Positions 4,867 through 34,562 of a stretch of 64,000 nucleotides of DNA are shown here, one piece after another. Both the position numbers and the translations under genes were made by a program. The notes under the pieces are model-generated. The model was given only the letters and a program-made list of their open reading frames with translations. It was not told where the DNA came from and searched no databases. This DNA comes from Antedon mediterranea (taxonomy: Eukaryota > Animalia > Echinodermata): assembly GCF_964355755.1 (NCBI RefSeq), contig NC_092673.1, positions 17,977,648 through 18,041,647 of the forward strand, in the 5' to 3' direction. Within the stretch, counting starts at the first letter, position 1. Each line of letters starts with the position of its first letter.

Positions 4867-5060
4867 TGGAGTAAGTTAAAGACAAAAATAAAATTGAAAA
4901 AGAACAAAAAACAAATACCGTACAACTATAAGTATCAAAGCAAATCGACTTGTACTAAGTAATACGCACATGTATATTTGCCTAATTGGTAACTATGTGT
5001 GACAGCCGTCGCTCCATCAATAACAGCTAATGAACAGTACCGGTAAAGCCTTGCATCAAA

Positions 5061-8390: not shown

Positions 8391-10320
8391 TCATCTCACA
8401 GTGTGTTGATTGACTTGGTACTGTAGACCATGCACTGTGGCTGCTGTGTACAATCTCACAGTGTGTTGATTGACTTGGTACTGTACACCATGCACTGTGG
8501 CTGCTGTGTACAATCTCACAGTGTGTTGATTGACTTGGTACTGTACACCATGCACTGTGGGTGCTGTGTACAATCTCACAGTGTGTTGATTGACTTGGTA
8601 CTGTAGACCATGCACTGTGGATGCTGTGTACAATCTCGCAGTGTGTTGATTGACTTGGTACTGTACACCATGCACTGTGGCTGCTGTGTACAATCTCACA
8701 GTGTGTTGATTGACTTGGTGCTGTACACCATGCACTGTGACTGCTGTGTACAATCTCACAGTGTGTTGATTGACTTGGTACTGTACACCATGCACTGTGG
8801 CTGCTGTGTACAATCTCACAGTGTGTTGATTGACTTAGTACTATACACCATGCACTGTGGCTGCTGTGTACAATCTCACAGTGTGTTGATTGACTTGGTA
8901 CTGTACACCATGCACTGTGGCTGCTGTGTACAATCTCACAGTGTGTTGATTGACTTGGTACTGTACACCATTCACTGTGGCTGCTGTGTACAATCTCACA
9001 GTGTGTTGATTGACTTGGTACTGTACACCATGCACTGTGGCTGCTGTGTACAATCTCACAGTGTGTTGATTGACTTGGTACTGTAGACCATGCACTGTGG
9101 CTGCTGTGTACAATCTCACAGTGTGTTGATTGACTTGGTACTGTAGACCATTCACTGTGGCTGCTGTGTACAATCTCACAGTGTGTTGATTGACTTGGTA
9201 CTGTACACCATGCACTGTGGCTGTACAATCTCACAGTGTGTTGATTGACTTGGTACTGTACACCATGCACTGTGGCTGTACAATCTCACAGTGTGTTGAT
9301 TGACTTGGTACTGTAGAACATGCACTGTGGCTGCTGTGTACAATCTCACAGTGTGTTGATTGACTTGGTACTGCTGTGTACAATCTCACAGTGTGTTGAT
9401 TGACTTGGTACTGTACACCATGCACTGTGGGTGCTGTGTACAATCTCACAGTGTGTTGATTGACTTGGTACTGTAGACCATGTACTGTGGATGCTGTTTA
9501 CAATCTCACAGTGTGTTGATTGACTTGGTACTGTACACCATGCACTGTGGCTGCTGTGTACAATCTCACAGTGTGTTGATTGACTTGGTGCTGTACACCA
9601 TGCACTGTGACTGCTGTGTACAATCTCACAGTGTGTTGATTGACTTGGTACTGTACACCATGCACTGTGGCTGCTGTGTACAATCTCACAGTGTGTTGAT
9701 TGACTTGGTACTATATACCATGCACTGTGGCTGCTGTGTACAATCTCACAGTGTGTTGATTGACTTGGTACTGTACACCATGCACTGTGGCTGCTGTGTA
9801 CAATCTCACAGTGTGTTAATTGACTTGGTACTGTACACCATGCACTGTGGCTGCTGTGTACAATCTCACAGTGTGTTGATTGACTTGGTACTGTACACCA
9901 TGCACTGTGGCTGCTGTGTACAATCTCACAGTGTGTTGATTGACTTGGTACTGTACACCATGCACTGTGGCTGCTGTGTACAATCTCACAGTGTCTTGAT
10001 TGACTTGGTACTGTACACCATGCACTGTGGCTGTACAATCTCACAGTGTCTTGATTGACTTGGGACTGTACACCATGCACTGTGGCTGCTGTGTACTACA
10101 ATCTAACAGTGTGTTGATTGACTTGGTACTGTACACCATGCACTGTGGCTGCTGTGTACAATCTCACAGTGTGTTGATTGACTTGGTACTGTACACCATG
10201 CACTGTGGCTGCTGTGTACAATCTCACAGTGTGTTGATTGACTTGGTACTGTACAACATGCACTGTGGCTGCTGTGTACAATCTAACAGTGTGTTGATTG
10301 ACTTGGTACTGTAGACCATG
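8391..10320. repeat. 60-bp tandem satellite, left block
   Basis: Unit GTGTGTTGATTGACTTGGTACTGTACACCATGCACTGTGGCTGCTGTGTACAATCTCACA, about 32 copies. Confidence 0.98.
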
Positions 10321-10518
10321 AGTAGTAGTAGTCCTACTTCAGACCCGACCTTGGTGTATTTCCTGATTACGTAATATCCGCCAGGTGTTTCTAATGTGAG
10401 GATACTGTTGTTGTTCCAGGCAGTGATATAGATGATCGTTACACGGATAGTCAGTCGTGGTTATAACAATGGTTAACAATAGGGATAGTATAAGACAATA
10501 GAGTATATCATTTCACTA

Positions 10519-11480
10519 GAATTGTTATATAGATTTGTTATATATTAATATACATTATAATATAAAATTAATAAATATTAAATAAAAATGATATGGTAAT
10601 TTAGTTGCTTGTGATGAGAACAAAATGGTTTACAATGGTTGAAGTCAATAGATGTTATGTTTCGGATTATAATACAATGGTTAACATAGGGTAAGGAAGT
10701 GAGACAATATAGTTTTTGTAAGATTTGAATTAGTCAGAGTCAATAAAGATGCACCTGGTTAATTAAAACTAGTTAATTGAGGTTTTTGCTTGATCTAAGC
10801 CGACATAATCCAAAGACATAAGTTTTTCGATCCGGATATTATAACAATGACTAAAACAAAAAGATAAGAATGAATGAAGTTAAATAATAAGTATGTCTTG
10901 ATTGAACTATACCGACAGGTAATTAACCATCTTCCGGATTTGTTAACAAAGGGGATAAATCGAAAGCAGTGACACGGGGGTGTTTGACATACTAAAGTTT
11001 AATGTGTGACGTCATGATGTTAGTTTCACTATTTTTGATGATTTTTGTTTTCCAATGTTTAGTTTTATTTTCATTTAAATTGGTTACGTTTACGAAAAGA
11101 TTTCTTTGTTTCCTTTTAAAATAAAACAAAAAGTGGGTAAAGAGGGAATTGTTATATAGAATTGTTATATATTAATATACATTATAATATAAAATTATTA
11201 AATAATAAATAAAAAATATTTGGTGATGATTTAGTCGTTTGTGATGAGAACAAATGGTATACAATGGTTGAAGTCAATAGGTGTTATGTTTCGGATATAA
11301 TATTACAATGGTTAACATTGGGTAAGGAAGTAAAAGATTGTTGTAAGATTTGAATTAGTCATGTACTTGGCGGTATTTTTAAAAAGGGGTACAATAAAAG
11401 ATGCTCCTGGTTTAATTAAAACAACGTAACAACATAAGTTATTTGATCAGGATATTATAACAATGACTAAAACAAAAAGT
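10519..11480 (+). repeat. Diverged ~340-bp direct repeat in the subterminal region (about 10519-10862 vs 11146-11478)
   Basis: Shared blocks GAATTGTTATATAGA...GTGATGAGAACAAA...GGATATTATAACAATGACTAAAACAAAA; mirrored in the right arm. Confidence 0.8.
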
Positions 11481-11976
11481 TAAGAGAATTTAGTACAGTT
11501 TTCATCAGTATGAACTTCTACAAACCAACAGCTGATTACGCCGATTCTAAAATAGCTGATAAGGCTAAGGCTAGTATGCAGCGAGTTATGAGAAAACGGT
11601 TTGATCTTTGATGATTTTGGATCGGACATTTTTTAAATTGAATGACATTGGGGAAGCTACTTAATGAAACAAAAGATACACGGCGCTTCGACACAATGTT
11701 CCGACAGGAAATACAACAATGACAATTGGCTGAAACAAATTTGGTAAATGCCGAATGTAATCCTTTGACTGTATATAACTCTCGAATATTTTGTAATATT
11801 TACCTCATTCTACAACGCTACAGAGCTCGACAAGACAGACAAAAAAAAAAACAACAACTAGTTACTATGGGTTCCGTGATTGAAATCAATGATCTTACTA
11901 TGGACTCTGATGTCGAAGAAGATGTTATATATATATAAGCAGTGATTCAGAATTTGAAGACGAAGACATACTAGCT

Positions 11977-12597
11977 ATGACTGGTGCCTATTTTACAGCA
12001 GAGGAGGAGGAAGAGATGAGGGAAGAGATGGGGGATATGACGTGTTTAATGGCGATTCAACCCCCACCTCCAATGAACGTTGATTTCAATAATGTATCTA
12101 ATACTGAAGAAGACGAACATTATATATCGAGAATAATTTCTGAAGAGGAGAGGATTGTATACGACGACACGTCATCGGTAGTTGACTACCACCTATTTCT
12201 GGCAAGAAAAGCCGATGTAGAAGATGAGGTAGAAGATGGGGTGTTTGCGGAAGAGTACCTGAACCCTGTGCTGGAGGCGGAGATTAAGAAAGAAACTACC
12301 GAACTTGAGTACAAAGAAATAATGAGAACAATTGAGAAGGTTTTCATAGAAGAATTTATATTCATTCTGAAGGACATGGTTGAACGTTATAACTTTCACG
12401 GCTCAAGATATGAACAACTCCTAACATTTTTTCGACCAATTCTGGCATTGAAACTTGTGGACAATAGCGCTACCCATTTTGAATGGGCGCTAAACTACTT
12501 TCATTTACGTTGTATAAATGTTGATGCGTTCGCTAAAGCCATAAAGTTGATTACAAATGATTCAGAACTTTTTAATAAGATTCTTTACCAATTGTAA
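11977..12597 (+). CDS. Maverick accessory ORF of unknown function, acidic N-terminus (206 aa; probably about 242 aa from ATG 11867 before a TA slippage)
   Basis: Open frame, more GC-rich than its flanks; the upstream frame joins it if 2 nt of the (TA)n run at 11926-11937 are removed. Confidence 0.6.
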   Translation: MTGAYFTAEEEEEMREEMGDMTCLMAIQPPPPMNVDFNNVSNTEEDEHYISRIISEEERIVYDDTSSVVDYHLFLARKADVEDEVEDGVFAEEYLNPVLEAEIKKETTELEYKEIMRTIEKVFIEEFIFILKDMVERYNFHGSRYEQLLTFFRPILALKLVDNSATHFEWALNYFHLRCINVDAFAKAIKLITNDSELFNKILYQL

Positions 12598-12850
12598 TTT
12601 GTACAAATTTAAAAAAATATCTTAACACTTTTTTAATTAATGTTACATATTTTTATAATTCTTATTTCTTTTCGGTAAATTTATTATTATTATGGTTGTA
12701 AATTATATTGAAATAGAATATGTGTTAAAATAAAGGTTGTGGTTTTTCTTTTAATAGCAACAACAACGAAAATGAATTTGATCTTTGCGTGTTATTTAAG
12801 TATTTTATTTATTTTTTAAATTTTCATTTTGGTGAATGAGGGTAATAAGT

Positions 12851-13090
12851 ATGGATGAGTACTTAAGAAAAGTATATTACGATCCTAAGCATCCTGATAG
12901 TTTTGGTGGTGTGGACCGACTTTATCAAAATGTAAAATACGATTTAAATATTACCAAGAGACAAGTTCAAGACTGACTGAGCAAGCTAGATACATATACA
13001 TTACACAAATCCATTCAACGTAAATTCAAACGAAACTGGGTGCTTGTAAGTGTTATTGATGAACAATGGGGAATGGATTTGGAAAAATAA
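12851..13090 (+). pseudogene. Maverick/Polinton retroviral-like integrase, N-terminal fragment
   Basis: Hand translation MDEYLRKVYYDPKHPDSFGGVDRLY...VQD*LSKLDTYTLHKSIQRKFKRNWVLVSVIDEQWGMDL fits the YYDP..P.SF.G...LY / YTLHKP.R..F.R / WQ.DL pattern; TGA at 12974; truncated just after the first catalytic Asp. Confidence 0.88.
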
Positions 13091-14600
13091 CGTGTATAAA
13101 ATTTGATTCAGACAAACTGTTTGACTTTAAATTTCCAAAAATCAAAGGAAGTCAATTTTGAAATAGTTGGTAGCATGGTACAAGGAATCGGACTGGAAAA
13201 AATAACAACAACTAATCCTAACAAAATAACCCGTAAACCAAAATCTCACTCTCTACCATTCAAAAATGATGTAGCGATTTTTTCAAGCGGTATTGTCATG
13301 AACGTATTGAAAAGAAAATAGTTTTATTGTCAATGATTTGTCAAGTGTTTTATTTTAATTTCAATTACTGTTGTATTGTATTTAGTTTTAACCGTTCATG
13401 TTGGCATGATCAATATTTGCTCAAACTCCATTTTATCGTTATGTTTGTAGTATTTTAGAGATTCCCGATCATCGTAATAATGATATAACTAGAATTCGTA
13501 ACCGTGTGTTAGATTCCACGCGTATTATATACATATTGTCTTACTTTAATTCCTTCTCTCGTTATTCACCCGATGTAGTTTGATCAAACAATTGTACCTG
13601 AGCCTGAAAGGTTAGTTGTTATGGTACAAGGAATCGGCCCGGAAAATAATTTGTTTTTCTTTTCTGTTAAATTATTATTATGTTTGTGAATTGTGTATTG
13701 CAATAGATTTGTTTAATGAAATTAAATTAATTAGGCCTATGTTTTGACTTAATTTACTGTCAGTGTAAATTTGTAAAAGTAGTTTTTCCTACTTTATTTC
13801 ACGGTAAATTTATTTATCGACTTAATTTAATTTGTTTTCTTTTCTGTTGTTGTTAAATGTAATTGCAGACACACATAATAAATGATTGTGATTATAAATA
13901 TTCTGTTTACTTCTTTTAATTTTAAACAGTACAATAGATCTGTAATGTAAAGTTATATTTTATATATAATAAGTAATATTACAAAAATAAACATACAAAA
14001 TGTATAAAGCATAGATTAATTAAATTTAAATACAATTTCTTTATTTCAACATGAATTTCATTTTCTACGTGTTTTCAATTTTAAATCTTTTAAGAAAGAC
14101 ACAATACGTACTGCTAAAAAAAATAAAACGCACACAAAAGAAAACAAATTTGAGACGCACGATATGTAACGACGGTTTCAATAAAAAGGCATATTATAAA
14201 TGTATTTTTACCAAATTTATAAAGTAAAGGGTTATTATTGAGAAATATACATTTTAGATAAATGATAACAGATCTAAAATTAATTAGAGATATCAATACA
14301 ATATGGTGTTCATAATAATTTGTTTTGATGACTAGATGAAACATCTGAAGACATTCAACAAAAAACAAGCGTTAACACCATACCAGTCACTAAGAATGCT
14401 ACTACTCTGAAAAAAACATCTCCCTTCCAGCACAGAAACAAATTCTGAACGAAAATAAAAAAATAAAAATAATTAGTAAACGAAACACGCGCATTATAAA
14501 TAAAATGAATAATTTAAGAATATTTGTTAAAATACCCACGAACAAAAAAAAAAAAGAAAAAGAAACATACTAACCGATTTATCGTCATTACGAAGTTCAA

Positions 14601-15404
14601 ACAAGGCCAACAGCCATTAAGTCGCGTGCTACAATGCATAGTGATACCGGACCGACAGACAAACAGACTGACAGACAGACAGACCGACAGACAGACGGAC
14701 CGACCGACATAGTGAACTATACTGACCGAAATTACTGAACATGTTTAAAAATGTTGAAATGTTTAAAAACATTTATATTGTTTTAATTTACACGTGCGTA
14801 GCCTGTCACATTTGACGTGCTCGTATAACGTAATTTCGAGTTGAAAATTAAGTCAAGAAAACAGAAATCGGGCAAAAAGTGTGCGCAATAACATTTAACG
14901 CGCAGTGCGCGCGCAAAAATCTGCGCACTCATGGCAATTTTGTAAACGCTTAAAATTGCCTGAAACGTACTCTTATTTCATCGAAAATAAATTTTGAAAA
15001 TTTTAAGCGCGCGTACGCATGCGTTACATGCGCTACGCACGTAATTGTATTGCCATATGATGATTTATGCCCTGAAATTTATGAGTACCAAATTTTATTT
15101 AATTGTGATTCATGGTTGTTAAGATATGATTACAAACGTGATTTCGTTAAATCGTGCGTAGACCGCGTAATTTTTTATTGCGCACCGTGAAAACATAACC
15201 ACATCGATTCCTGGCCATAAGGAATATTCTGTGAAAAATTGACTTAGCTAGATTAAACTGATATCAAGATAAGGTCATAAAGCGACAAAACGCATAGTGA
15301 TACCGGACCGACAGACAGACAGACCGACAGACAGACCGACAGACAGACAGACAGACAGACCGACCGACCGACTTAGTGAACTATAGAGTCGCTTCCACGC
15401 GACT
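14601..15404 (-). mobile_element. Helentron-associated non-autonomous element (HINE/DINE-1-like), left arm only
   Basis: 804-bp insertion absent from the right arm; inserted in an A/T run; subterminal inverted repeats AGTCGCGTG/CACGCGACT, terminal hairpin AGTCGC-TTCCAC-GCGACT, (GACA/GACC)n microsatellites. Confidence 0.75.
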
Positions 15405-15736
15405 AAAAACGAAAACTTTTCCTTGAAAAATCCACAAGAGACACGTTTTACATTTTCTAACTGCATTTCAGTGTCACATTGTTTCGCAACACATGTACAT
15501 ACAACGAGTCCTGTCACAAATCTGCCGACATTTATTTTTGTATCGCTCATCATTTGTTCTAATACATAATACAGCGCTTCCGAAGAAATATCTTTACACA
15601 ATTCTAACACATTAAAATTGTTTTCCAACTCTTTACAAGCACGAATAGTACTCTGGAGGATGGGTGAATCCAAAACAATTAACCCCGTCAATTTATATTC
15701 AATGTATGCTAAAACTACTTCCTCTAAATCAACCAT
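15275..15736 (-). pseudogene. Bcl-2-like ORF, left-arm copy disrupted by the HINE
   Basis: Matches the right-arm copy up to FFKEKFSF (one A/S change), then reads into HINE microsatellite (SVGLSVCL). Confidence 0.65.
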
Positions 15737-17401
15737 AACGCTCGACAAAACAAATGATAATGGATGTAATTACCAAGAAAGTTACAACTTAAAACATTTA
15801 TTTTTTGTTTTTAAAAAGAAGTTGTAACATAGAAACTAATTTTGTCAGGAAATGTGTTTTTATTATTTATGTGATTTATTTGTGTTTAGAAAGTTACAAC
15901 ATTAAGATTTAATTTTGTCAAAAAAAATGTGAACATACGGAGCCGAATGTAATTTTTAATCCTTAGTATAGTGAAGAGATTTTATAAAAAAAAAATAAAG
16001 AGCGAACGGAAACTAATGATTTTAGATTAGCCATATAGAAATTAAATGTTGTCAAGATAGTTGTCAAAAATAAATAAAATATATTATACTGAATTTACTT
16101 TGTACATTTATTTAATTTAGGCCGTAATTAGGGTTGTTGTTCATTTATGATTGTGAAAAATATACATACGAATAAAACAGCTATATATATATATAAAAAA
16201 AAAAATAATGATTCAGTGTTATAATTTTATTTACCTGTCATTATGTTAAATAAAACATATTCTAAATTAAATTTATATCATGTTAGATATATTTTCTAAT
16301 TACGTTTTTTCAATATAAATGTATTATTATGTTGTCGATAGTTGTGTAAAAAACGTAATTACAAACTCTACTATGACACGCATGTAAACACAAACAGTAT
16401 TTACTTCTCTAACTAAGTTTGATATTCGCCATAACACTATGTCATATCATCAAACGACTTGTTTTATTTTTTTTAAGTAATTATTTTCTAAAAGATTGTT
16501 AACAAATACCGAATTACCGGAGGAAGTCTGTCCGCTAATCACCGCGGTGAAAGGTGTTACTAAACGCCCAGTCATTGTCATTATACTGCGTTCTTAACTT
16601 GAATTTTCATATAAGTAGTTGAAAACAAAAATTTTAAAAATGTAACAAGATTCATGAAACAATTATTTTTTTTTTTATGTAACAAACTTAATGACAAAAT
16701 AAATTTTATGCAAAAAGATTCTTGACAAATTATTTTTATGTAACAAATTTAATGATAAAATAAAATTTATGTAAAAAGATTCTTGATAAATTATTTTTTA
16801 TTTAACGAATTTCATGACCATTTTGTTTTCTTATGTAACAAGTTTTTGATTCTGAAATTAATCGACATACTTATAAAGAATAAATCTATAATCACAATTA
16901 AATTTATAAACAAATAATGATATTTAATATTAGTATAATTATTTCCATACAAAAAGTATAAATAAATTCAAATATTTACACACAAAAATATTGCATAAAT
17001 GATATTTACAAAATAATTACAAAGGTTAAAAATAAATTCTCTTATTTACAAGAATATTACACAAATAATTCTTAAAAACTTAAACGAACTAGGCCTACTG
17101 AACAAATGGACTGAATGACAAAATATTTTTTTCAACAAAATAATTCTTTATGTTATATACGGTTGATAAAATCAATTGATGCAACTAATTCTTAGCAAAA
17201 TAATTTTCTGTTACAAATTTCTTGTAAAAAATAAATTTATGTAACGAATTTCTTTACAAATTAATTTTTATGTAACAAATATTTTGAAAAATTTATTTTC
17301 ATGTAACAAATTTATCTACAAAAATATTTTTATGAAACAAACTTCTTAACAAATTTATCTTATGTAACAAATTTCTTTACAAATTTATTTTTATGTAACA
17401 A

Positions 17402-17720
17402 ATGTTGTTGAAAATATTGTGTTTCAAAGGTTACAACAATAAATTTGAACATAAATGTAAATTCAGTTGTGAGCTATGTTGCTCCAATGATTGCACTCCT
17501 TCATTGGAATCAGTAACTATCATTTCATGTAATGAATGTAATCGTTCTTTTAAAAATCAAAAATGTTTTAACAATCACAAATCTTCAAAAAATGGTACAA
17601 AAAACGGTTTGTGATATTAAAAAAATCTGTAAGGAGTGCAATCGTTTCATTAAGAAGGATCATAAATGCAATGAATATACGTGTAAAGTATGTAATCTAA
17701 AAGTTTCATTGCATTTATGA
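17402..17720 (+). pseudogene. Fragment of the Cys-rich N-terminal region of Maverick protein-primed DNA polymerase B
   Basis: CFKGYNNKFEHKC..SCELC...C...CNECNRSFKNQKCFNNHK, a frameshift in the A-run near 17600, then VCDIKKICKECNRFIKKDHKCNEYTCKVC; spacing resembles the region preceding the exonuclease domain of animal Maverick pPolB. Confidence 0.7.
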
Positions 17721-19147
17721 TCCTTCTTAATGAAACGATTGCACTCCTTACAGATTTTTTTAATATCACAAACCGTTTGTGAAAATTTTTTTGCTAAGAA
17801 TTAGTTGCATCAATTGATTTTATCAACCGTATGTAACATAAAGAATTATTTTGTTGAAAAAAAACATTTTGTCATTCAGTCCATTTGTTCAGTAGGCCTA
17901 GTTCGTTTAAGTTTTTAAGAATTATTTGTGTAATATTCTTGTAAATAAGAGAATTTATTTTTAACCTTTGTAATTATTTTGTAAATATCATTTATGCAAT
18001 ATTTTTGTGTGTAAATATTTGAATTTATTTATACTTTTTGTATGGAAATAATTATACTAATATTAAATATCATTATTTGTTTATAAATTTAATTGTGATT
18101 ATAGATTTATTCTTTATAAGTATGTCGATTAATTTCAGAATCAAAAACTTGTTACATAAGAAAAAAAAATGGTCATGAAATTCGTTAAATAAAAAATAAT
18201 TTATCAAGAATCTTTTTACATAAATTTTATTTTATCATTAAATTTGTTACATAAAAATAATTTGTCAAGAATCTTTTTGCATAAAATTTATTTTGTCATT
18301 AAGTTTGTTACATAAAAAAAAAAAATAATTGTTTCATGAATCTTGTTACATTTTTTAAATTTTTGTTTTCAACTACTTATATGAAAATTCAAGTTAAGAA
18401 CGCAGTATAATGACAATGACTGGGCGTTTAGTAACACCTTTCACCGCGGTGATTAGCGGACAGACTTCCTCCGGTAACTCGGTATTTGTTAACAATCTTT
18501 TAGAAAATAATTACTTTAAACAAATAAAACAAGTCGTTTGATGATATGACATAGTGTTATGGCGAATATCAAACTTAGTTAGAGAAGTAAATACTGTTTG
18601 TGTTTACATGCGTGTCATAGTAGAGTTTGTAATTACGTTTTTTACACAACTATCGACAACATAATAATACATTTATATTGAAAAAACGTAATTAGAAAAT
18701 ATATCTAACATGATATAAATTTAATTTAGAATATGTTTTATTTAACATAATGACAGGTAAATAAAATTATAACACTGAATCATTATTTTTTTTTTATATA
18801 TATATATAGCTGTTTTATTCGTATGTATATTTTTCACAATCATAAATGAACAACAACCCTAATTACGGCCTAAATTAAATAAATGTACAAAGTAAATTCA
18901 GTATAATATATTTTATTTATTTTTGACAACTATCTTGACAACATTTAATTTCTATATGGCTAATCTAAAATCATTAGTTTCCGTTCGCTCTTTTTTTTTT
19001 TTTATAAAATCTCTTCACTATACTCAGGATTAAAAATTACATTCGGCTCCGTATGTTCACATTTTTTTTGACAAAATTAAATCTTAATGTTGTAACTTTC
19101 TAAACACAAATAAATCACATAAATAGAATAGTGGAAATTCACTCAAA

Positions 19148-22100
19148 ATGGAATCGTTGAAATTTAAGCCGCCTCCACCCTTCGATTTTGATGGTCCTAG
19201 TGTGTCTGCTGCTTGGAAAAGGTGGAAACAGAGATTTACATTCTTTCTGAAAGCGACTGGCAGTGCACGTAAAAGTGGTGAAATAAAGGTAGCAATTTTA
19301 ATTACTACACTGGAAGGGCGTGGCTTAGATATTTACAACAACTTTACGTTCACTGATCTTGTAGGCGAACCGGGTCAGGAAGATTATGTCCCAGCAGAGG
19401 ACAATAATGATTTTGATACAGTAATGTCAAAGTATGATGAATACTGTAATAAACGGGACCCGATAATGGCGTTACGAGCGCAATATTGGCAATATGAACG
19501 ACCCGAAGGTCAGGGTTTGGATGAGTTTGTGAATGACTTAAGAACAATGGCGGTGAATTGTAAATTTGTGGATCAAGACGGTACGATTCGTGATAAGCTT
19601 TTCTTCAGTGTAACAAATCCAGTGATGAAAATGAAAGTTATGGGCGATGATGGCAACGCTACACTTGATACTGTGATACACCGAATGAGAATTTTTGAGA
19701 GTTCTAGACGCGAGCTTGAAATGGCCGGTGTTGCAAGTGATTATAAGCCGAAGGTTCATGCATTAAGAAGAACCAAATCACATAAACAGACGCCAAGGGT
19801 TAGTGGTCAACAGAATCATCAGTTTACGGATGCAGCCAAAACTAAATGTAGCAGGTGCGGTTCTTCACATCTACCTCGTCAGTGTCCAGCTTATGGTAAA
19901 ACATGCTACGGGTGTAAGGGTTTGAATCATTTTCAGTCTGTGTGCACCAAACGTTTTTCCCGAGGACGCGGTCGTGAACGTGGAAGAGCTGTACATACAA
20001 TGGATGAACAGTATATTATTGCCGAAGGTGTAAGTGATCCTAATGACTTATACATTGACACTTTAACTGTTAAAGATAAAAATGAGTACTTTTATATTGA
20101 CACTCTAAGAGATAACGATGACAAGAACGCTTGGTTCTATGATGTGTTTGTGGGAGGTAATGTGTTAAAGATGAAGCTTGACACAGGAGCAGGTGTTAAC
20201 TGCATACCACTGGAAACATTTAGAAAGTTACCAGGACATAAGAACATTAAAGTATATCATTCTAAAACTAACCTATATAGTTATGGTGATGAAATTGTAA
20301 AACATATTGGTAAAGTTACTCTAAATGTAAAAGTTGATAACATCCAAAATGATTATGACTTCTTTATTACTAATGTTGATGGTCCACCTATACTTGGATT
20401 GAAAGCCTGTAGGGAGCTTGGTCTGATCAAACGTGGTAACAATATGATGTGTAGTGATAATGTGATAAATAATAAATATGTACATGCACTAACTAAAGAT
20501 TCTTTGATTCGAGAGAATCGTGATGTATTTACAGGTTTAGGTAAATATCAAGATCCTTATGACATCAAGTTGAAAAGTGGTGTTTCTCCAGTAGTCCATC
20601 CACCCCGCAGGGTGCCACTTAGTCTGCATACCAAGCTGAAAGAAAAACTTGACGATATGGAGAAGAGGGGCGTGATTAAACGGACCGACAAACCAACAGA
20701 TTGGGTCAACAGCCTAGTGATAGTGGAGAAACGAGACGGATCCTTGAGGTTGTGCTTGGATCCACGTGATTTGAACAAAGCCATTAGACGTGAACATCAT
20801 ATGATACCGACCGGTAAGGACGTAGTGAGTCAGCTGTCAGGTAAAACACTTTTCACTGTCTTTGACCAGAAAGATGCGTACTGGCAAGTTCCTCTTACTG
20901 ACGCTAGCGCAGATATATGTACATTCAATACTCCTTTTGGACGATACAGTTTTCTAAGAATGCCATTTGGTATCTGCAGTGCTAGTGAGGTGCTACAGAA
21001 ACGAAACCAGCAAATATTTGGTCATATACCTAACGTACACATAATATCTGATGATATGATTATAGCTACAGGTAGTGAAGCAGAGCATAATGCAACAGTA
21101 CAGAGGGTGATGGATACGGCCAGAGCGAACAATGCCAAATTCAATGGAAGCAAGCTTAAGTATAAACAGTCTGAATTGGTGTTCATGGGAAACGTGGTGA
21201 GTGCCGATGGACAGAAACCAGACGAAGAAAAGGTTAGAGTTATCAAAGAAATGCCTGACCCACAATGTAAATCTGACTTGCAACGTATAATGGGGATGCT
21301 TAATTATCTTTCACAATTCATACCTAATATGTCCAATGTGAGTGCACCTCTCCGGGAATTGCTCAAGAAAGATGTTGCATGGTTTTGGGGTCCAGAACAA
21401 GCAGAATCCCTGAGGCAATTAAAGGCGTTGATTAGTAGCAAACCAGTCTTAAGTTTCTTTGATCCACAGAAGCCAACCATTATCCAATGTGATGCATCAT
21501 CCACAGGGCTCGGAAGCTGTTTGCTTCAAGAGGGTCATCCGGTTGCGTTTGCCTCTAGGTCGTTAACATCAGCTGAAGTTAATTACTCACAAATTGAGAA
21601 GGAGATGTTGGCGATCTGCTTTTCTATACACAAATACCACCAATATGTATATGGCCGAGCTGTTGAAGTTCACACTGACCATAAACCACTCGAAACAATC
21701 ACACGTAAACCACTCCATAAAGCTAGTCCTAGAATACAACAAATGCTGCTCAAATTGATAAAGTATGAGCTTGATGTTAAGTATGTTCCTGGAAAGTACA
21801 TGTACATAGCTGATGCTCTCAGCAGAGCATATCCTGATAAGGTTGATCGTGATGCCCAACCCCTTGAACAGTTGAAATATAGGGTGCATAGTCTAGACGA
21901 AATATTGCCCATGAGTAAAGCAAAAATTGAAGAAGCAATACGAGCTACACAGGCAGATGTGGTACTCCAAACTCTAATTCTAACATGCAAAAGCGGGTGG
22001 CCTAAACATAGATGGGGTGCACCGGAGCAAGTTAGGCAGTATTGGCATCTTCGTGATGAGATACATGAAATTGATGGTCTTGTGTTTTTAGGTGAGAAGT

Positions 22101-23143
22101 TGATTGTTCCTAGCCAAATGAGAGCAGATATGCTGAATAAAATTCATGAAAGTCACCTTGGGATGGAGAAGTGTAAGGCGAGGGCCAGGTCTATTTTGTA
22201 TTGGCCAGGTATGACCAACGATATAGAATCAGTAGTGTCAAGGTGCCCTGTTTGTGTAAAGTTCATGCGTAGAAATCAACGGGAGCCGATGATTCCACAT
22301 AAGGTTCCTATGAGACCATGGGCTAAGCTGGGCGCGGATATATATACATTCGCTGGCAGAGATCATCTTATTGTAGTTGACTATTTTTCCAAATACCCGG
22401 AAGTAGTGACACTCACTAGCAAAACGGCTGGAGAAATCATCAAAAAATTGAAATCTATATTCTCAAGACATGGCATCCCTGAAATATTAATGACTGATAA
22501 CATGCCGTTCGCCAGCTACGAGTTCAAACGGTTTGCTAACCAGTGGGGGTTCGATTTAGTGACGTCCAGTCCGACATATGCCAGAAGTAATGGGCAAGTT
22601 GAACGTTTCGTCCAAACCATTAAGCAACTCATGAGGAAGTCCGTTGATGAGGGAAGCGATTTTCATCTTGCTCTACTAGACTATCGTGATTCACCAATTG
22701 CAGGGTTGAATTGTTCTCCTGCTCAGTTGTTGATGAGCAGAAAGTTAAGGTCAACACTTCCAGTCACACATACATTGCTGCAACCACAAGTTATTGTCGG
22801 AGCTAGAGATTTCCTTCAGTCACGTCAACAGTCTATGACAAAATATTATGATCGTGGTACACGTGTATTGACGAAACTAAGAAAAGGGGACAACGTGAGA
22901 ATATTGAAAGGACGGCAATGGGAACCTGCTGTTGTGGCTAAGGAACATGAGCTACCCCGTTCATATGTAGTGATGACCGAAGATGGAACGTCGTACAGAC
23001 GGAATCGACAACATTTATTAAACACTCAACAACCGGATACTTTGCAGAAGGGCGTACCAACTTTGCAGAAGGTACCGGAAGCACCACCCTTACGTAGAAG
23101 TGATCGTGTTAGTCGTCCACCGGATCGATTGGATTATAAATAA
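19148..23143 (+). CDS. Gypsy Gag-Pol polyprotein, 1331 aa, open
   Basis: Two zinc knuckles (CSRCGSSH..QC, CYGCKGLNHFQSVC), protease LDTGA, RT (LCLDPRDLN, RMPFG, ISDD), RNase H (CDASSTG, YSQIEKE, TDHKPL), integrase (H..H...CPVC, ADIY, TDN, SNGQVER), in PR-RT-RH-IN order. Confidence 0.96.
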   Translation: MESLKFKPPPPFDFDGPSVSAAWKRWKQRFTFFLKATGSARKSGEIKVAILITTLEGRGLDIYNNFTFTDLVGEPGQEDYVPAEDNNDFDTVMSKYDEYCNKRDPIMALRAQYWQYERPEGQGLDEFVNDLRTMAVNCKFVDQDGTIRDKLFFSVTNPVMKMKVMGDDGNATLDTVIHRMRIFESSRRELEMAGVASDYKPKVHALRRTKSHKQTPRVSGQQNHQFTDAAKTKCSRCGSSHLPRQCPAYGKTCYGCKGLNHFQSVCTKRFSRGRGRERGRAVHTMDEQYIIAEGVSDPNDLYIDTLTVKDKNEYFYIDTLRDNDDKNAWFYDVFVGGNVLKMKLDTGAGVNCIPLETFRKLPGHKNIKVYHSKTNLYSYGDEIVKHIGKVTLNVKVDNIQNDYDFFITNVDGPPILGLKACRELGLIKRGNNMMCSDNVINNKYVHALTKDSLIRENRDVFTGLGKYQDPYDIKLKSGVSPVVHPPRRVPLSLHTKLKEKLDDMEKRGVIKRTDKPTDWVNSLVIVEKRDGSLRLCLDPRDLNKAIRREHHMIPTGKDVVSQLSGKTLFTVFDQKDAYWQVPLTDASADICTFNTPFGRYSFLRMPFGICSASEVLQKRNQQIFGHIPNVHIISDDMIIATGSEAEHNATVQRVMDTARANNAKFNGSKLKYKQSELVFMGNVVSADGQKPDEEKVRVIKEMPDPQCKSDLQRIMGMLNYLSQFIPNMSNVSAPLRELLKKDVAWFWGPEQAESLRQLKALISSKPVLSFFDPQKPTIIQCDASSTGLGSCLLQEGHPVAFASRSLTSAEVNYSQIEKEMLAICFSIHKYHQYVYGRAVEVHTDHKPLETITRKPLHKASPRIQQMLLKLIKYELDVKYVPGKYMYIADALSRAYPDKVDRDAQPLEQLKYRVHSLDEILPMSKAKIEEAIRATQADVVLQTLILTCKSGWPKHRWGAPEQVRQYWHLRDEIHEIDGLVFLGEKLIVPSQMRADMLNKIHESHLGMEKCKARARSILYWPGMTNDIESVVSRCPVCVKFMRRNQREPMIPHKVPMRPWAKLGADIYTFAGRDHLIVVDYFSKYPEVVTLTSKTAGEIIKKLKSIFSRHGIPEILMTDNMPFASYEFKRFANQWGFDLVTSSPTYARSNGQVERFVQTIKQLMRKSVDEGSDFHLALLDYRDSPIAGLNCSPAQLLMSRKLRSTLPVTHTLLQPQVIVGARDFLQSRQQSMTKYYDRGTRVLTKLRKGDNVRILKGRQWEPAVVAKEHELPRSYVVMTEDGTSYRRNRQHLLNTQQPDTLQKGVPTLQKVPEAPPLRRSDRVSRPPDRLDYK

Positions 23144-23218
23144 ATGTATCAATAATTAACTTCATTTTATGTTTATTTTGCAGATATCATGTTTATTTTC
23201 AAACCATCCTATAATGTA

Positions 23219-23346
23219 TGAAACATATGAATGTGATCTAAGAAACAATTTGAAACATATGAATGTGGTCTAAGAAACAATTTGAAACATATGAATGTGA
23301 TCTAAGAAACAATTTGAAACATATGAATGTGATCTAAGAAACAATT
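23219..23346 (+). repeat. Four 32-bp tandem repeats in the Gypsy 3' UTR
   Basis: TGAAACATATGAATGTGATCTAAGAAACAATT x4. Confidence 0.95.
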
Positions 23347-23477
23347 TATGTTTAAGGAAAAGTAATATTATTTATTTATGAGAATGTGATATATCGTGTC
23401 TAATTTACTTTTGATATTAATTTTTTTTAAAAATAAAAATTAAACTTTAGAAATTTATTTTGTTAGAAAAGGAAAGA

Positions 23478-23613
23478 TGTCACATATGCTCTGTTAATAT
23501 GCTAATTATATTTGTTTGTTATTTGCAAATTATGCAAACTACGTTACGCTCGGTGAAGTAATAAAACAGTAGTTGAATTAAAAGAACCGTGTTGACGAGT
23601 CACACTTGTAATA
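23478..23613 (+). repeat. Short Gypsy 3' LTR (~136 bp)
   Basis: Starts TG right after the polypurine tract; AATAAA at 23560; ends TGTAATA (non-canonical) where Maverick arm sequence resumes. Confidence 0.7.
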
Positions 23614-23743
23614 TAATAAAAACACATTTCCTGACAAAATTAGTTTCTATGTTACAACTTCTTTTTAAAAACAAAAAAATAAATGTTTTAAGTTGTAACT
23701 TTCTTGGTAATTACATCCATTATCGTTTGTTTTGTCGAGCGTT

Positions 23744-24274
23744 ATGGTTGATTTAGAGGAAGTAGTTTTAGCATACATTGAATATAAATTGACGGGGTTA
23801 ATTGTTTTGGATTCACCCATCCTCCAGAGTACTATTCGTGCTTGTAAAGAGTTGGAAAACAATTTTAATGTGTTAGAATTGTGTAAAGATATTTCTTCGG
23901 AAGCGCTGTATTATGTATTAGAACAAATGATGAGCGATACAAAAATAAATGTCGGCAGATTTGTGACAGGACTCGTTGTATGTACATGTGTTTCGAAACA
24001 ATGTGACACTGAAATGCAGTTAGAAAATGTAAAACGTGTCTCTTGTGGATTTTTCAAGGAAAAGTTTTCGTTTTTTGAACTTCGTAATGACGATAAATCG
24101 GTTAGTATGTTTCTTTTTCTTTCTTTTTTTTTGTTCGTGGGTATTTTAACAAATATTCTTAAATTATTCATTTTATTTATAATGCGCGTGTTTCGTTTAC
24201 TAATTATTTTTATTTTTTTATTTTCGTTCAGAATTTGTTTCTGTGTAGGAAGGGAGATGTTTTTTTCAGAGTAG
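23744..24274 (+). CDS. Bcl-2-like protein carried by the Maverick derivative (uninterrupted copy)
   Basis: BH4-like LEEVVLAYIEYKL, BH3-like LQSTIRACKELE, BH1-like MMSDTKINVGRFVTGL (cf. NWGR) and a hydrophobic C-terminal tail; BH2 poorly recognisable; first ATG is 23744 (the ORF-track start is TTG). Confidence 0.7.
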   Translation: MVDLEEVVLAYIEYKLTGLIVLDSPILQSTIRACKELENNFNVLELCKDISSEALYYVLEQMMSDTKINVGRFVTGLVVCTCVSKQCDTEMQLENVKRVSCGFFKEKFSFFELRNDDKSVSMFLFLSFFLFVGILTNILKLFILFIMRVFRLLIIFIFLFSFRICFCVGREMFFSE

Positions 24275-25585
24275 TAGCATTCTTAGTGACTGGTATGGTG
24301 TTAACGCTTGTTTTTTGTTGAATGTCTTCAGATGTTTCATCTAGTCATCAAAACAAATTATTATGAACACCATATTGTATTGATATCTCTAATTAATTTT
24401 AGATCTGTTATCATTTATCTAAAATGTATATTTCTCAATAATAACCCTTTACTTTATAAATTTGGTAAAAATACATTTATAATATGCCTTTTTATTGAAA
24501 CCGTCGTTACATATCGTGCGTCTCAAATTTGTTTTCTTTTGTGTGCGTTTTATTTTTTTTAGCAGTACGTATTGTGTCTTTCTTAAAAGATTTAAAATTG
24601 AAAACACGTAGAAAATGAAATTCATGTTGAAATAAAGAAATTGTATTTAAATTTAATTAATCTATGCTTTATACATTTTGTATGTTTATTTTTGTAATAT
24701 TACTTATTATATATAAAATATAACTTTACATTACAGATCTATTGTACTGTTTAAAATTAAAAGAAGTAAACAGAATATTTATAATCACAATCATTTATTA
24801 TGTGTGTCTGCAATTACATTTAACAACAACAGAAAAGAAAACAAATTAAATTAAGTCGATAAATAAATTTACCGTGAATTAAAGTAGGAAAAACTACTTT
24901 TACAAATTTACACTGACAGTAAATTAAGTCAAAACATAGGCCTAATTAATTTAATTTCATTAAACAAATCTATTGCAATACACAATTCACAAACATAATA
25001 ATAATTTAACAGAAAAGAAAAACAAATTATTTTCCGGGCCGATTCCTTGTACCATAACAACTAACCTTTCAGGCTCAGGTACAATTGTTTGATCAAACTA
25101 CATCGGGTGAATAACGAGAGAAGGAATTAAAGTAAGACAATATGTATATAATACGCGTGGAATCTAACACACGGTTACGAATTCTAGTTATATCATTATT
25201 ACGATGATCGGGAATCTCTAAAATACTACAAACATAACGATAAAATGGAGTTTGAGCAAATATTGATCATGCCAACATGAACGGTTAAAACTAAATACAA
25301 TACAACAGTAATTGAAATTAAAATAAAACACTTGACAAATCATTGACAATAAAACTATTTTCTTTTCAATACGTTCATGACAATACCGCTTGAAAAAATC
25401 GCTACATCATTTTTGAATGGTAGAGAGTGAGATTTTGGTTTACGGGTTATTTTTTTAGGATTAGTTGTTGTTATTTTTTCCAGTCCGATTCCTTGTACCA
25501 TGCTACCAACTATTTCAAAATTGACTTCCTTTGATTTTTGGAAATTTAAAGTCAAACAGTTTGTCTGAATCAAATTTTATACACG

Positions 25586-25825
25586 TTATTTTTCCAAATC
25601 CATTCCCCATTGTTCATCAATAACACTTACAAGCACCCAGTTTCGTTTGAATTTACGTTGAATGGATTTGTGTAATGTATATGTATCTAGCTTGCTCAGT
25701 CAGTCTTGAACTTGTCTCTTGGTAATATTTAAATCGTATTTTACATTTTGATAAAGTCGGTCCACACCACCAAAACTATCAGGATGCTTAGGATCGTAAT
25801 ATACTTTTCTTAAGTACTCATCCAT
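25586..25825 (-). pseudogene. Maverick integrase N-terminal fragment, right-arm copy
   Basis: Reverse complement of 12851-13090 with the same internal TGA. Confidence 0.88.
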
Positions 25826-26078
25826 ACTTATTACCCTCATTCACCAAAATGAAAATTTAAAAAATAAATAAAATACTTAAATAACACGCAAAGATCAAAT
25901 TCATTTTCGTTGTTGTTGCTATTAAAAGAAAAACCACAACCTTTATTTTAACACATATTCTATTTCAATATAATTTACAACCATAATAATAATAAATTTA
26001 CCGAAAAGAAATAAGAATTATAAAAATATGTAACATTAATTAAAAAAGTGTTAAGATATTTTTTTAAATTTGTACAAA

Positions 26079-26699
26079 TTACAATTGGTAAAGAATCTTA
26101 TTAAAAAGTTCTGAATCATTTGTAATCAACTTTATGGCTTTAGCGAACGCATCAACATTTATACAACGTAAATGAAAGTAGTTTAGCGCCCATTCAAAAT
26201 GGGTAGCGCTATTGTCCACAAGTTTCAATGCCAGAATTGGTCGAAAAAATGTTAGGAGTTGTTCATATCTTGAGCCGTGAAAGTTATAACGTTCAACCAT
26301 GTCCTTCAGAATGAATATAAATTCTTCTATGAAAACCTTCTCAATTGTTCTCATTATTTCTTTGTACTCAAGTTCGGTAGTTTCTTTCTTAATCTCCGCC
26401 TCCAGCACAGGGTTCAGGTACTCTTCCGCAAACACCCCATCTTCTACCTCATCTTCTACATCGGCTTTTCTTGCCAGAAATAGGTGGTAGTCAACTACCG
26501 ATGACGTGTCGTCGTATACAATCCTCTCCTCTTCAGAAATTATTCTCGATATATAATGTTCGTCTTCTTCAGTATTAGATACATTATTGAAATCAACGTT
26601 CATTGGAGGTGGGGGTTGAATCGCCATTAAACACGTCATATCCCCCATCTCTTCCCTCATCTCTTCCTCCTCCTCTGCTGTAAAATAGGCACCAGTCAT
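26079..26699 (-). CDS. Maverick accessory acidic ORF, right-arm copy
   Basis: Protein identical to that of 11977-12597. Confidence 0.6.
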   Translation of the reverse strand: MTGAYFTAEEEEEMREEMGDMTCLMAIQPPPPMNVDFNNVSNTEEDEHYISRIISEEERIVYDDTSSVVDYHLFLARKADVEDEVEDGVFAEEYLNPVLEAEIKKETTELEYKEIMRTIEKVFIEEFIFILKDMVERYNFHGSRYEQLLTFFRPILALKLVDNSATHFEWALNYFHLRCINVDAFAKAIKLITNDSELFNKILYQL

Positions 26700-28355
26700 A
26701 GCTAGTATGTCTTCGTCTTCAAATTCTGAATCACTGCTTATATATATATAACATCTTCTTCGACATCAGAGTCCATAGTAAGATCATTGATTTCAATCAC
26801 GGAACCCATAGTAACTAGTTGTTGTTTTTTTTTTTGTCTGTCTTGTCGAGCTCTGTAGCGTTGTAGAATGAGGTAAATATTACAAAATATTCGAGAGTTA
26901 TATACAGTCAAAGGATTACATTCGGCATTTACCAAATTTGTTTCAGCCAATTGTCATTGTTGTATTTCCTGTCGGAACATTGTGTCGAAGCGCCGTGTAT
27001 CTTTTGTTTCATTAAGTAGCTTCCCCAATGTCATTCAATTTAAAAAATGTCCGATCCAAAATCATCAAAGATCAAACCGTTTTCTCATAACTCGCTGCAT
27101 ACTAGCCTTAGCCTTATCAGCTATTTTAGAATCGGCGTAATCAGCTGTTGGTTTGTAGAAGTTCATACTGATGAAAACTGTACTAAATTCTCTTAACTTT
27201 TTGTTTTAGTCATTGTTATAATATCCTGATCAAATAACTTATGTTGTTACGTTGTTTTAATTAAACCAGGAGCATCTTTTATTGTACCCCTTTTTAAAAA
27301 TACCGCCAAGTACATGACTAATTCAAATCTTACAACAATCTTTTACTTCCTTACCCAATGTTAACCATTGTAATATTATATCCGAAACATAACACCTATT
27401 GACTTCAACCATTGTATACCATTTGTTCTCATCACAAACGACTAAATCATCACCAAATATTTTTTATTTATTATTTAATAATTTTATATTATAATGTATA
27501 TTAATATATAACAATTCTATATAACAATTCCCTCTTTACCCACTTTTTGTTTTATTTTAAAAGGAAACAAAGAAATCTTTTCGTAAACGTAACCAATTTA
27601 AATGAAAATAAAACTAAACATTGGAAAACAAAAATCATCAAAAATAGTGAAACTAACATCATGACGTCACACATTAAACTTTAGTATGTCAAACACCCAC
27701 GTGTCACTGCTTTCGATTTATCCCCTTTGTTAACAAATCCGGAAGATGGTTAATTACCTGTCGGTATAGTTCAATCAAGACATACTTATTATTTAACTTC
27801 ATTCATTCTTATCTTTTTGTTTTAGTCATTGTTATAATATCCGGATCGAAAAACTTATGTCTTTGGATTATGTCGGCTTAGATCAAGCAAAAACCTCAAT
27901 TAACTAGTTTTAATTAACCAGGTGCATCTTTATTGACTCTGACTAATTCAAATCTTACAAAAACTATATTGTCTCACTTCCTTACCCTATGTTAACCATT
28001 GTATTATAATCCGAAACATAACATCTATTGACTTCAACCATTGTAAACCATTTTGTTCTCATCACAAGCAACTAAATTACCATATCATTTTTATTTAATA
28101 TTTATTAATTTTATATTATAATGTATATTAATATATAACAAATCTATATAACAATTCTAGTGAAATGATATACTCTATTGTCTTATACTATCCCTATTGT
28201 TAACCATTGTTATAACCACGACTGACTATCCGTGTAACGATCATCTATATCACTGCCTGGAACAACAACAGTATCCTCACATTAGAAACACCTGGCGGAT
28301 ATTACGTAATCAGGAAATACACCAAGGTCGGGTGTGAAGTAGGACTACTACTACT

Positions 28356-29668
28356 ACCATGCACTGTGGCTGCTGTGTACAATCTCACAGTGTGTTGATT
28401 GACTTGGTACTGTACACCATGCACTGTGGCTGCTGTGTACAATCTCACAGTGTGTTGATTGACTTGGTACTGTAGACCATGCACTGTGGCTGCTGTGTAC
28501 AATCTCAAAAGCCCCTTTCTCACAGAGTTGTGTGCCAGGAATATTGCGGGAATATACCATTACCATGCCGGTATGGTTTTCTGTGAGAACGGGTCGTCTT
28601 GACATCATGCCGGCACCATGCCGGCATCGACATGACCTGCTTTAGACCTAGTAATATTCTAGGGATATTCCCCGCAATGCCAGAAGGGCATTCTGTGAGA
28701 ACGTATCGCCGTTATATTCCGGGGTTCCCCGTCGAGGCTTTGACACCTTGCGCGGTCAAGTGTATCACTTTGGCGCCTATTCAATTCAATTAACAATAAT
28801 AATGTCGAACTGGAGGGATAATGAGATAAGAGAGCTGCTTAAAATAAGGGGACAAGAAGAAATTTGTAGTATAATCTATAGGCCGCTAGGCTAGGCCATT
28901 AGCTCTTTGTTTGTAATGTTGGTGCCATGACCTTTCGTCGCCTTGTAAATTGTAGGCCTACAGCCTTCTAAGGTGTTTTACAGATTGCCGATGACGGCAA
29001 ATTAATTGCTATACCTGTATAATATATGCACAATATACTGTACATAGCATGTATTGCATAAATATGCTATAAAGGAAGATAATAATCTGTAACTTAACAT
29101 TCGCCGCCATATCATCGCTAGACAAAAATAATAACAATAAAGGACGCCCTCAATAATTATTTTGTCAGAGACTTTTTATTGGCCGAATATGCCCGACTCC
29201 TTTCTCACAGAAAGCCGGCATATACCGGTTATATTTCCGGCACGATAGTCCGATGAGAATGGGTATATGCCGGTAACGATACCGGCACGACGCCAGCACT
29301 GTACCGGTATATTGCAGGCACATCTGTGAGAAAGGGGCTCTAGTGTGTTGATTGACTTGGTACTGTACACCATGCACTGTGACTGCTGTGTACAATCTCA
29401 CAGTGTGTTGATTGACTTGGTGCTGTACACCATGCACTGTGACTGCTGTGTACAATCTCACAGTGTGTTGATTGACTTGGTACTGCACACCATGCACTGT
29501 GGCTGCTGTGTACAATCTCACAGTGTGTTGATTGACTTGGTACTGTAGACCATGCACTGTGGCTGCTGTGTACAATCTCACAGTGTGTTGATTGACTTGG
29601 TACTGTACACCATGCACTGTGACTGCTGTGTACAATCTCAGAGTGTGTTGATTGACTTGGTACTGTAC
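28356..29668. repeat. 60-bp satellite, right block (interrupted by a MITE)
   Basis: Same unit, orientation and phase as 8391-10320. Confidence 0.95.
28510..29339. mobile_element. MITE with Harbinger-like TIRs inserted in the satellite
   Basis: TIRs AGCCCCTTTCTCACAG / CTGTGAGAAAGGGGCT; internal TGTGAGAA repeats; TSD not clean, so the superfamily is uncertain. Confidence 0.65.
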
Positions 29669-34149: not shown

Positions 34150-34390
34150 TCGGAAAGTTCTCATTTTCATGAGTTAAGAGAACACCGTCTTTCAAAGTAC
34201 TTACTACAGTAGACCTACTTTCATTAGTCAGAAACTCAGATAATTCTTGGTCATTTTCGTTGCATCTAAACAAATGTACTCAATTTTTATGGTAATGAGC
34301 CTTTGCTGTAAACCATCAGAATCCTTTTCCTCGATTTTCTCTAGTCATTGATTTTTTAGCAAAATCCGAACCAAATCAATTCGTAAAAGA
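34150..34390 (-). pseudogene. Degenerate Academ-type transposase fragment
   Basis: Frameshifted reading RIDLV...KSMTRENRGKG...KN*..LFRCNENDQELSEFL resembles the RID.VFD.Y...S.K...R..RG...NW..FL...ENK.EL..FL block. Confidence 0.55.
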
Positions 34391-34562
34391 CATCTCAATA
34401 TAATTATTCAAGTAATCCTCAAATTAGTGACATGGACCTACAATATACTGTTCTGTACAAGACCTTTTTAGGCATCCACCTGTGGACTTTCACTTTGAAG
34501 GTCTTGGTCTCCTAATCATACAAGAAACAATGTCTGATTTAATCAATCAAAGTAGTGGGTCC

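Follow-up and report, generated by a model that had tools for sequence, protein, structure and literature searches.

Candidate template-switch joints around a polymerase-gene hairpin at the centre of a palindromic Maverick/Polinton derivative in Antedon mediterranea

The window analysed here is a stretch of 64,000 nucleotides from the echinoderm Antedon mediterranea (NCBI RefSeq assembly GCF_964355755.1, contig NC_092673.1, positions 17,977,648 to 18,041,647 of the forward strand), and all coordinates below are positions within it. It holds a long palindromic element, whose centre is occupied by a hairpin-bearing fragment of a gene for pPolB, a protein-primed DNA polymerase of family B. The insertion host is a 60-bp satellite (8393-10320, 28356-28507 and 29342-29668). 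The (AGT)n/(ACT)n end motif and a 6-bp target duplication are hallmarks of Mavericks/Polintons (PMC8097293). The element is a non-autonomous Polinton derivative and not an autonomous member: it has the 6-bp duplication and (AGT)2/(ACT)2-type ends of the autonomous elements but differs from them in terminal repeat length (~50-1,500 bp in autonomous members) and in having neither an intact protein-primed PolB nor the core genes. As is typical of non-autonomous palindromic derivatives, Polinton ends flank a long palindrome, the insertion is clean and copies are many. The arms pair as 10321-15866 with 23613-28355 and as 15864-17208 with 17781-19125, giving an arm length of ~6.1 kb (4,741 + 1,345 aligned bases); without two one-sided insertions, the element measures 12,743 bp. 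Its main features are listed below, where "the abundant family" denotes related elements whose layout was deduced from contigs of public sequencing runs.

10321..28355 (no strand): whole palindromic non-autonomous Maverick/Polinton derivative, 18,035 bp, with ends (AGT)4 and (ACT)4
10315..10320 (+): ACCATG, the 6-bp target-site duplication on the left, in register with the 60-bp satellite that hosts the insertion
28356..28361 (+): right copy of the target-site duplication ACCATG, after which the satellite picks up again in phase
10321..16296 (+): left arm, up to the point where the arms of the abundant family are inferred to end on the inner side; its mirror lies at 18693-19125 and 23613-28355
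16297..17208 (+): mirrored part of the inferred family spacer, with its mirror at 17781-18693 and 8 substitutions in 912 bases
17209..17417 (+): left-only backbone, comprising the remaining family spacer (31-bp minisatellite) and the 8 nt 17410-17417
17417..17704 (+): captured pPolB piece, 288 nt, from the Cys-rich region directly N-terminal to the exonuclease domain
17602..17675 (+): left stem half
17676..17704 (+): loop, 29 nt, the final bases of the captured pPolB piece, without a stable fold of its own
17705..17778 (-): right stem half, a fold-back copy of 17675-17602 that is missing from the parental gene
17779..17781 (no strand): jump joint, with 2 extra bases (17779-17780) followed by the mirror of 17208

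An earlier note on this DNA, made from its letters, had described a perfect 74-bp stem closing a 29-nt loop, and a check of exact complementarity confirmed it. The two halves were 100% complementary over 74 nt, bounded by first mismatches at 17601/17779 on the outside and at 17676/17704 on the inside, and when the bases of 17200-17800 were shuffled 500 times, the longest perfect inverted repeat reached 22 nt (mean 11.8). Neither the turn nor 17390-17440 showed a pre-existing fold (z-scores of +0.56 to -0.36 in all four stretches). The jump of the right arm to the mirror of 17208, with about 390 bp left in the left arm only, was likewise borne out, at 391-393 bp: global alignment of the arms gave a left-only gap of 391 nt plus 2 unmatched bases. 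This left-only stretch consists of non-coding backbone that is mostly a 31-bp minisatellite (17209-17417) and of pPolB sequence (17418-17601). The backbone ends with 17410-17417, which is 16289-16296 exactly inverted and with which the second arm of the abundant family would begin. The insert with the hairpin spans 361 bp, and the gap between the long arms, that is, the spacer of this copy, spans 572 bp. Two arrays of one 31-bp AT-rich repeat (16671-16818 and 17134-17418) lie within the inferred family spacer, and the jump lands in the second.

The captured piece joins the backbone with a 1-nt overlap, and its frame is interrupted at an A-run near 17600-17605. When read through, with X at the frame break, it had 64% identity over 96 aa to residues 362-457 of the protein P0002, assigned by its source to the crinoid Anneissia japonica; P0002 was the only one of 10 candidates to match this query, and the 61-aa piece alone had no homologue by shared words. 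Further along, P0002 continues into exonuclease motifs at 488 and 563, located with motif patterns of this domain. P0002 had no useful PDB match and no PolB Pfam hit, the latter because it ends within the exonuclease domain. A search with the first 61 aa returned 37 hits, of which 11 were scanned (nine of the longest and the two top hits); PF03175 (DNA_pol_B_2) lay downstream in six, and the five without any family were all 781 aa or shorter. With five pPolB relatives as tblastn queries, only 17417-17714 and the mirror of the stem matched in the window, and scans of IMG/VR and two pattern scans of metagenomes gave no match. Judged by these similarities, the Cys-rich piece is pPolB, as the earlier note had supposed. 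The loop does not lie in the middle of the fragment, where that note had placed it: the match of 17417-17704 puts it at the 3' end of the piece, ~30 codons ahead of the exonuclease motif.

Public sequencing runs were compared as contigs. Eleven runs are listed, nine of them holding part of the stretch, and six (X1, X4, X5, X6, X7 and X8) were compared in two comparisons of four runs each; in two cases, the listed pieces were 32 of 628 and 32 of 69. Contigs of the parental gene reach 17704 in organism C (X4, X5 and X6) or 17705-17706 in organism D (X7 and X8). Beyond this point the contigs of X4, X6, X7 and X8 bear other letters, and that of X5 stops with 4 unaligned letters. Because the gene continues differently, the 74-bp hairpin does not belong to the parental gene and the loop marks the turn. 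The proposal that the loop marks a template switch is thereby strengthened; a hairpin present in intact parental elements had been named as the finding that would speak against it, and the hairpin is missing from the gene contigs of organisms C and D. One X8 contig (2,493 nt, depth 200) aligns with 17417-17705 alone and diverges from the window on either side of it. An X5 contig is free of substitutions over 17488-17704, its single gap lying at the A-run. The pPolB donor looks young on these letters. A pre-existing inverted microhomology, predicted for about position 17705, proved weak: exact inverted pairing at the turn, in the observed register, was 0 nt in organism C and 1 nt in organism D, although a looser match offset by one base is possible.

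At 17417 the summed contig depth drops about tenfold in all four runs of the first comparison and several-fold or more in all four of the second. In X1, X5 and X8, backbone contigs exceeded pPolB contigs about 4- to 10-fold in depth, which is not to be read as copy number. By its sequence context, the pPolB piece is a foreign insert starting at 17417. The deeper backbone contigs turn at this position to the opposite strand at 16288, with 8 letters shared, in three of four runs (depth of the joint: X1, 10.7; X7, 4,132; X8, 2,042), and contigs of X4, X5 and X6 likewise depart from the window at 17417. The 8-mer 17410-17417 occurs once per strand in 7,097 bases, and no other continuation past 17417 was found among the contigs listed. 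We infer an abundant family with its own older centre, in which the arm would run to 16296, the spacer would occupy 16297-17409 (1,113 bp) and the second arm would start at 17410; this layout is firmest for organism C. Relative to it, the present copy has 912 bp of additional mirror (16297-17208), a spacer of 572 bp instead of 1,113 bp and the new 361-bp hairpin-bearing insert. The long arms are likely older than the present centre, since in the abundant family position 17417 is followed by the mirror of 16288. For the same reason, the origin of the long palindrome inside pPolB, which the earlier note had located there, was rejected. The present copy was also rejected as the ancestor of the abundant family, as the pPolB joint and the turn of the family would then have to coincide to the base.

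Other variants were seen among the family contigs. Those of several runs depart from the window at 16040-16042 and 16365, on one or both sides, where family members have other segments; the segment at 16041 is missing from both arms of the present copy. In organism-D runs, an opposite-strand joint at 16160/17358 (depths of 72 and 23) and, within pPolB, a short skip at 17603-17658 (depth 88) suggest further centre variants of the family.

Our preferred reading, to which we give about an even chance, is that the centre is the trace of one growing strand that underwent three serial template switches on a gene-poor Maverick/Polinton satellite that was likely already palindromic. The palindrome would then likely not have arisen at this centre, which would instead document how the element was remodelled at a late stage. 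The three joints and the match of each piece were observed in the window, and the steps between them might have run as follows. A strand copying the left arm and the spacer would have halted 8 nt into the second arm (17417), where the polymerase, exiting the loop, may have met a re-formed panhandle stem; take-off at the arm boundary would fit such a stall. Synthesis would have restarted on the pPolB gene of a full-length relative, from which 288 nt were copied. At 17704 the strand would have folded back on itself with hardly any pairing, leaving the 29-nt loop, and would then have copied 74 nt. A slip at the A-run could then have landed it ~390 nt back on its own strand (17208-17218), and copying outward through the spacer into the arm would have restored the second end. 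With such a skip, the 391-bp asymmetry would be skipped sequence and not a later repair, and the 572-bp gap between the long arms might aid survival of the copy as a by-product. The three joints lie within 365 bp and each has 0-4 nt of shared sequence, as would be expected from one unsteady synthesis. As the copier, we lean slightly towards the element's own protein-primed replication over host break-repair synthesis, because the donor is a Polinton polymerase gene.

Tentatively, the centre could be a fossil of extrachromosomal Maverick replication, in which the protein-primed polymerase stalled at the base of the satellite's panhandle, hopped to the polymerase gene of a helper and snapped back twice, after which the new hairpin genome integrated. 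If true, this would provide direct sequence evidence of satellite and helper Mavericks copying side by side and swapping templates, and it would offer a route for the pickup of cargo such as the Bcl-2-like gene and the Gypsy piece lacking long terminal repeats (LTRs) described below. Maverick/Polinton replication in animals is modelled on phage and adenovirus biology, with little direct evidence, and joints of this kind are among the few records of how a copying strand behaved. If many centres share the take-off between arm and spacer and the captures of helper genes, the panhandle model and gene capture by template switching would become testable from genomes alone. The value of the present case is moderate: it is one copy, its joints come from the assembly alone, and host repair is able to make the same shape.

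Several observations weigh against the serial-switch reading. The pairing at the turn is below the 2-11 nt reported in yeast, and a later deletion would suit the jump joint just as well. In one parse, this joint shares a word with the mirror of 17218-17215, and a 4-nt gap comes next; the word is 3 nt long with the window letters and 4 nt long with the letter read at 17218 in all four runs. Other parses give a shortened T-run with a blunt join, or a short templated patch from 17609-17616, and no parse dates the gap. Capture and fold-back could therefore have yielded a near-perfect 7-kb palindrome with a 29-nt spacer, which a separate ~390-bp deletion in the right arm later stabilised. Direct shared words of 3-4 nt, as at the jump, are frequent at end-joining deletions. 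Long palindromes are described as unstable when their spacers are short, and asymmetric deletions as stabilising them, with deletions making up 93% of 118 rearrangements and a 25-fold gain in stability (PMC8701086), and 6-kb inverted repeats with a 280-bp spacer as stable in wild-type yeast (PMC7999016). The element also took other one-sided changes afterwards, namely insertions of 805 bp and 4.5 kb; as these sit in different arms, sequence present on one side only does not have to reflect a deletion here. However, the innermost perfect stem is untouched by the gap, which begins 74 bp from the loop; the deletions reviewed in PMC8701086 are located in the junction and break the central symmetry. 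This account further requires two events where one suffices, and no intermediate was found in the contigs of the six runs. We regard it as rather unlikely. Of the stabilising one-sided deletion put forward in the earlier note, the one-sided gap holds and a deletion is possible, but the survival of the innermost stem and the greater symmetry of this copy than of the family do not suit its stabilising role.

Further points against serial switching come from the contigs. The family layout was derived from short contigs (136 nt over the joint), none of which covers arm, spacer and second arm, and contigs depart from the window at 16365 in organisms A and D, so that the spacer differs on that side. 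In the contigs, the pPolB gene extends further, but nothing ties it to the ends of the element. None of the three central joints was bridged by a listed contig in the six runs, and the joints are thus known from the assembly alone; contigs do lose rare variants. Depth was 0 at 17708-17739 in all four runs of the second comparison. The depths of 79.8 (X7) and 19.8 (X8) at about 17747-17771 were rejected as support for a joint, as they equal those of two long diverged pPolB contigs mapped by ties on the stem. The unbridged joints raise the question of an assembly or library artefact, either a chimera from amplification or two loci wrongly joined, and whole-genome amplification is known to yield inverted chimeras in which a stretch is skipped. 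The element, on the other hand, is enclosed by a precise 6-bp duplication in satellite phase on both sides, and its arms differ by independent insertions and 17 substitutions, so that the two arms are not mirrored copies made at the level of reads. A single-copy joint, moreover, need not show among contigs that drop rare variants. An artefact at the centre thus appears very improbable.

The divergence between the arms is the remaining point against serial switching. The newly mirrored part has 8 substitutions in 912 bases and the rest of the arms 9 in 5,174 (Fisher p 0.0017, with a partition picked after the data were seen); without two doubtful sites, p was 0.017. Copy-back on one strand should give equal rates, and repair in place a lower rate inside; the inner excess fits neither. 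The excess would be accounted for if end joining of two broken family molecules (cut at 17417 and at about 17208), head to head, took up a ready-made 361-bp pPolB hairpin and the outer arms were later evened by conversion. The runs read the right-arm letter at five of the eight inner sites and list no other letter at the remaining three, a pattern that implies that each inner half has its own variants, as such a capture would leave. It would also fit the yeast model in which a folded fragment is captured at a break with 0-4 nt of end homology (PMC11724301). This route takes three molecules and has to even out the outer arms afterwards, however, and a like excess appears when the arms are split at the Gypsy insertion instead (9/1,345 versus 8/4,741, p 0.005). 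Six of the eight inner differences, moreover, lie at homopolymer edges (same edge type outside: 2/978) and may stem from slippage or consensus error. Homopolymer context as the sole cause of the inner excess was rejected, with 1.6 differences expected and 8 seen. Capture of a ready-made hairpin is, in our view, unlikely, and the three serial switches remain our preferred reading.

The centre resembles products of several known systems. Mavericks/Polintons share the (AGT)n/(ACT)n ends, the perfect 6-bp target duplication and a protein-primed PolB, here present as a piece (PMC8097293, PMC10748475). The element differs in having no intact core gene, its pPolB being a 288-bp insert at the centre, and in its arms of ~6.1 kb, against 46-1,447 bp in the intact vertebrate Mavericks/Polintons described (PMC8097293, PMC10748475). 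Distant inverted templated insertions at double-strand breaks in yeast (Yu et al. 2024, PMC11724301) likewise consist of two inverted pieces of one distant locus, as do 17418-17704 (forward) and 17675-17602 (reversed) here, with a gap of 29 nt. In that study, the pieces overlap by medians of 50 and 150 bp (74 bp here), gaps are 2-20 or 30-119 nt, and outer-joint homology is 0-4 nt, as in the present copy. Pairing at the inner turn is 2-11 nt in yeast and, judged from contigs of the gene, 0-1 nt here. The flanks also differ: in yeast they are the two ends of one break, whereas here they are the backbone (17417) and its own mirror (17208), which are not neighbours in the inferred family. The yeast insertions came from RPA, Rad27 or Dna2 mutants (PMC11724301).

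In copy-back or snap-back defective viral genomes, the polymerase likewise restarts on the nascent strand and regenerates the second end, producing a helper-dependent palindrome (PMC13506859). The present centre differs from these in being integrated in the germ line, in having a stretch from another molecule ahead of the turn and in requiring two self-switches. Strand switching by the protein-primed polymerase of phi29 in vitro is cited in PMC5910420. The deletions that break the centre and stabilise mouse transgenes, as reviewed in PMC8701086, likewise remove sequence on one side only, close to the middle of an animal-genome palindrome several kilobases long, but here the 74-bp stem and 29-nt loop are intact and symmetry has increased by 912 bp relative to the inferred family. 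Mobile Polintons with transposon cargo in place of polB have been described (bioRxiv 10.1101/2025.02.07.637071). Fold-back inserts and copy-back genomes are therefore already known kinds, and what is new is the anatomy, i.e., a satellite centre rebuilt with a hairpin from the polymerase gene of its likely helper. Palindromic products of phi29 strand switching are said to have been obtained by Esteban et al. in 1997. Nothing on the centres of palindromic non-autonomous Polintons appeared in the titles or abstract starts of the literature covered, key subscription papers lying outside this coverage.

The arms carry additional open frames and the two one-sided insertions:

14600..15404 (no strand): 805-bp insertion in the left arm only, interrupting the Bcl-2-like frame on that side
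19126..23612 (+): piece of a Gypsy-type LTR retrotransposon, confined to the right arm, 4.5 kb, with one open 1,338-aa frame and no LTR pair
23711..24274 (+): Bcl-2-like open frame, arm cargo, 187 aa from stop to stop; Pfam PF00452, E 6.6e-4, 20.6 bits, under the cut-off of 31.4
14371-15769 (-): left-arm copy of the Bcl-2-like frame, divided by the 805-bp insertion
11911-12597 and 26079-26765: 228-aa acidic frame, two identical copies, one per arm

The frames of at least 150 aa in the element are the Bcl-2-like frame and the 228-aa frame, in two copies each, the Gypsy frame and one frame antisense to it; no core Polinton gene was found among them. In Pfam searches of eight frames, no integrase, packaging ATPase, protease or capsid was detected, except for the integrase of the Gypsy piece itself; decayed traces were not sought by tblastn. 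None of 135 candidates was a homologue of the Bcl-2-like frame. The 228-aa acidic frame had no Pfam or PHROGs family, and three element proteins had no match in PHROGs. No Rfam match was found in 10000-29000, and no second copy of the element is present within the window.

The Gypsy-type frame encodes a gag-pol with reverse transcriptase, RNase H and integrase, and the piece starts just ahead of it. Its overlap with the flanks is only 3 nt, and the piece looks captured or truncated rather than inserted by its own integrase. The 805-bp insertion contains two GACA microsatellites in an 86%-identical direct repeat (14633-14721 and 15289-15385), and its target was an A-run; the arrangement recalls non-autonomous Helentron-type elements.

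Elsewhere in the window, an open 985-aa frame on the reverse strand (1918-4875, -) has endonuclease and reverse-transcriptase domains of the LINE type. At 33346-37630, inverted repeats that are ~91% identical flank a 30-bp tandem array (34563-36744), forming another foldback-like element.

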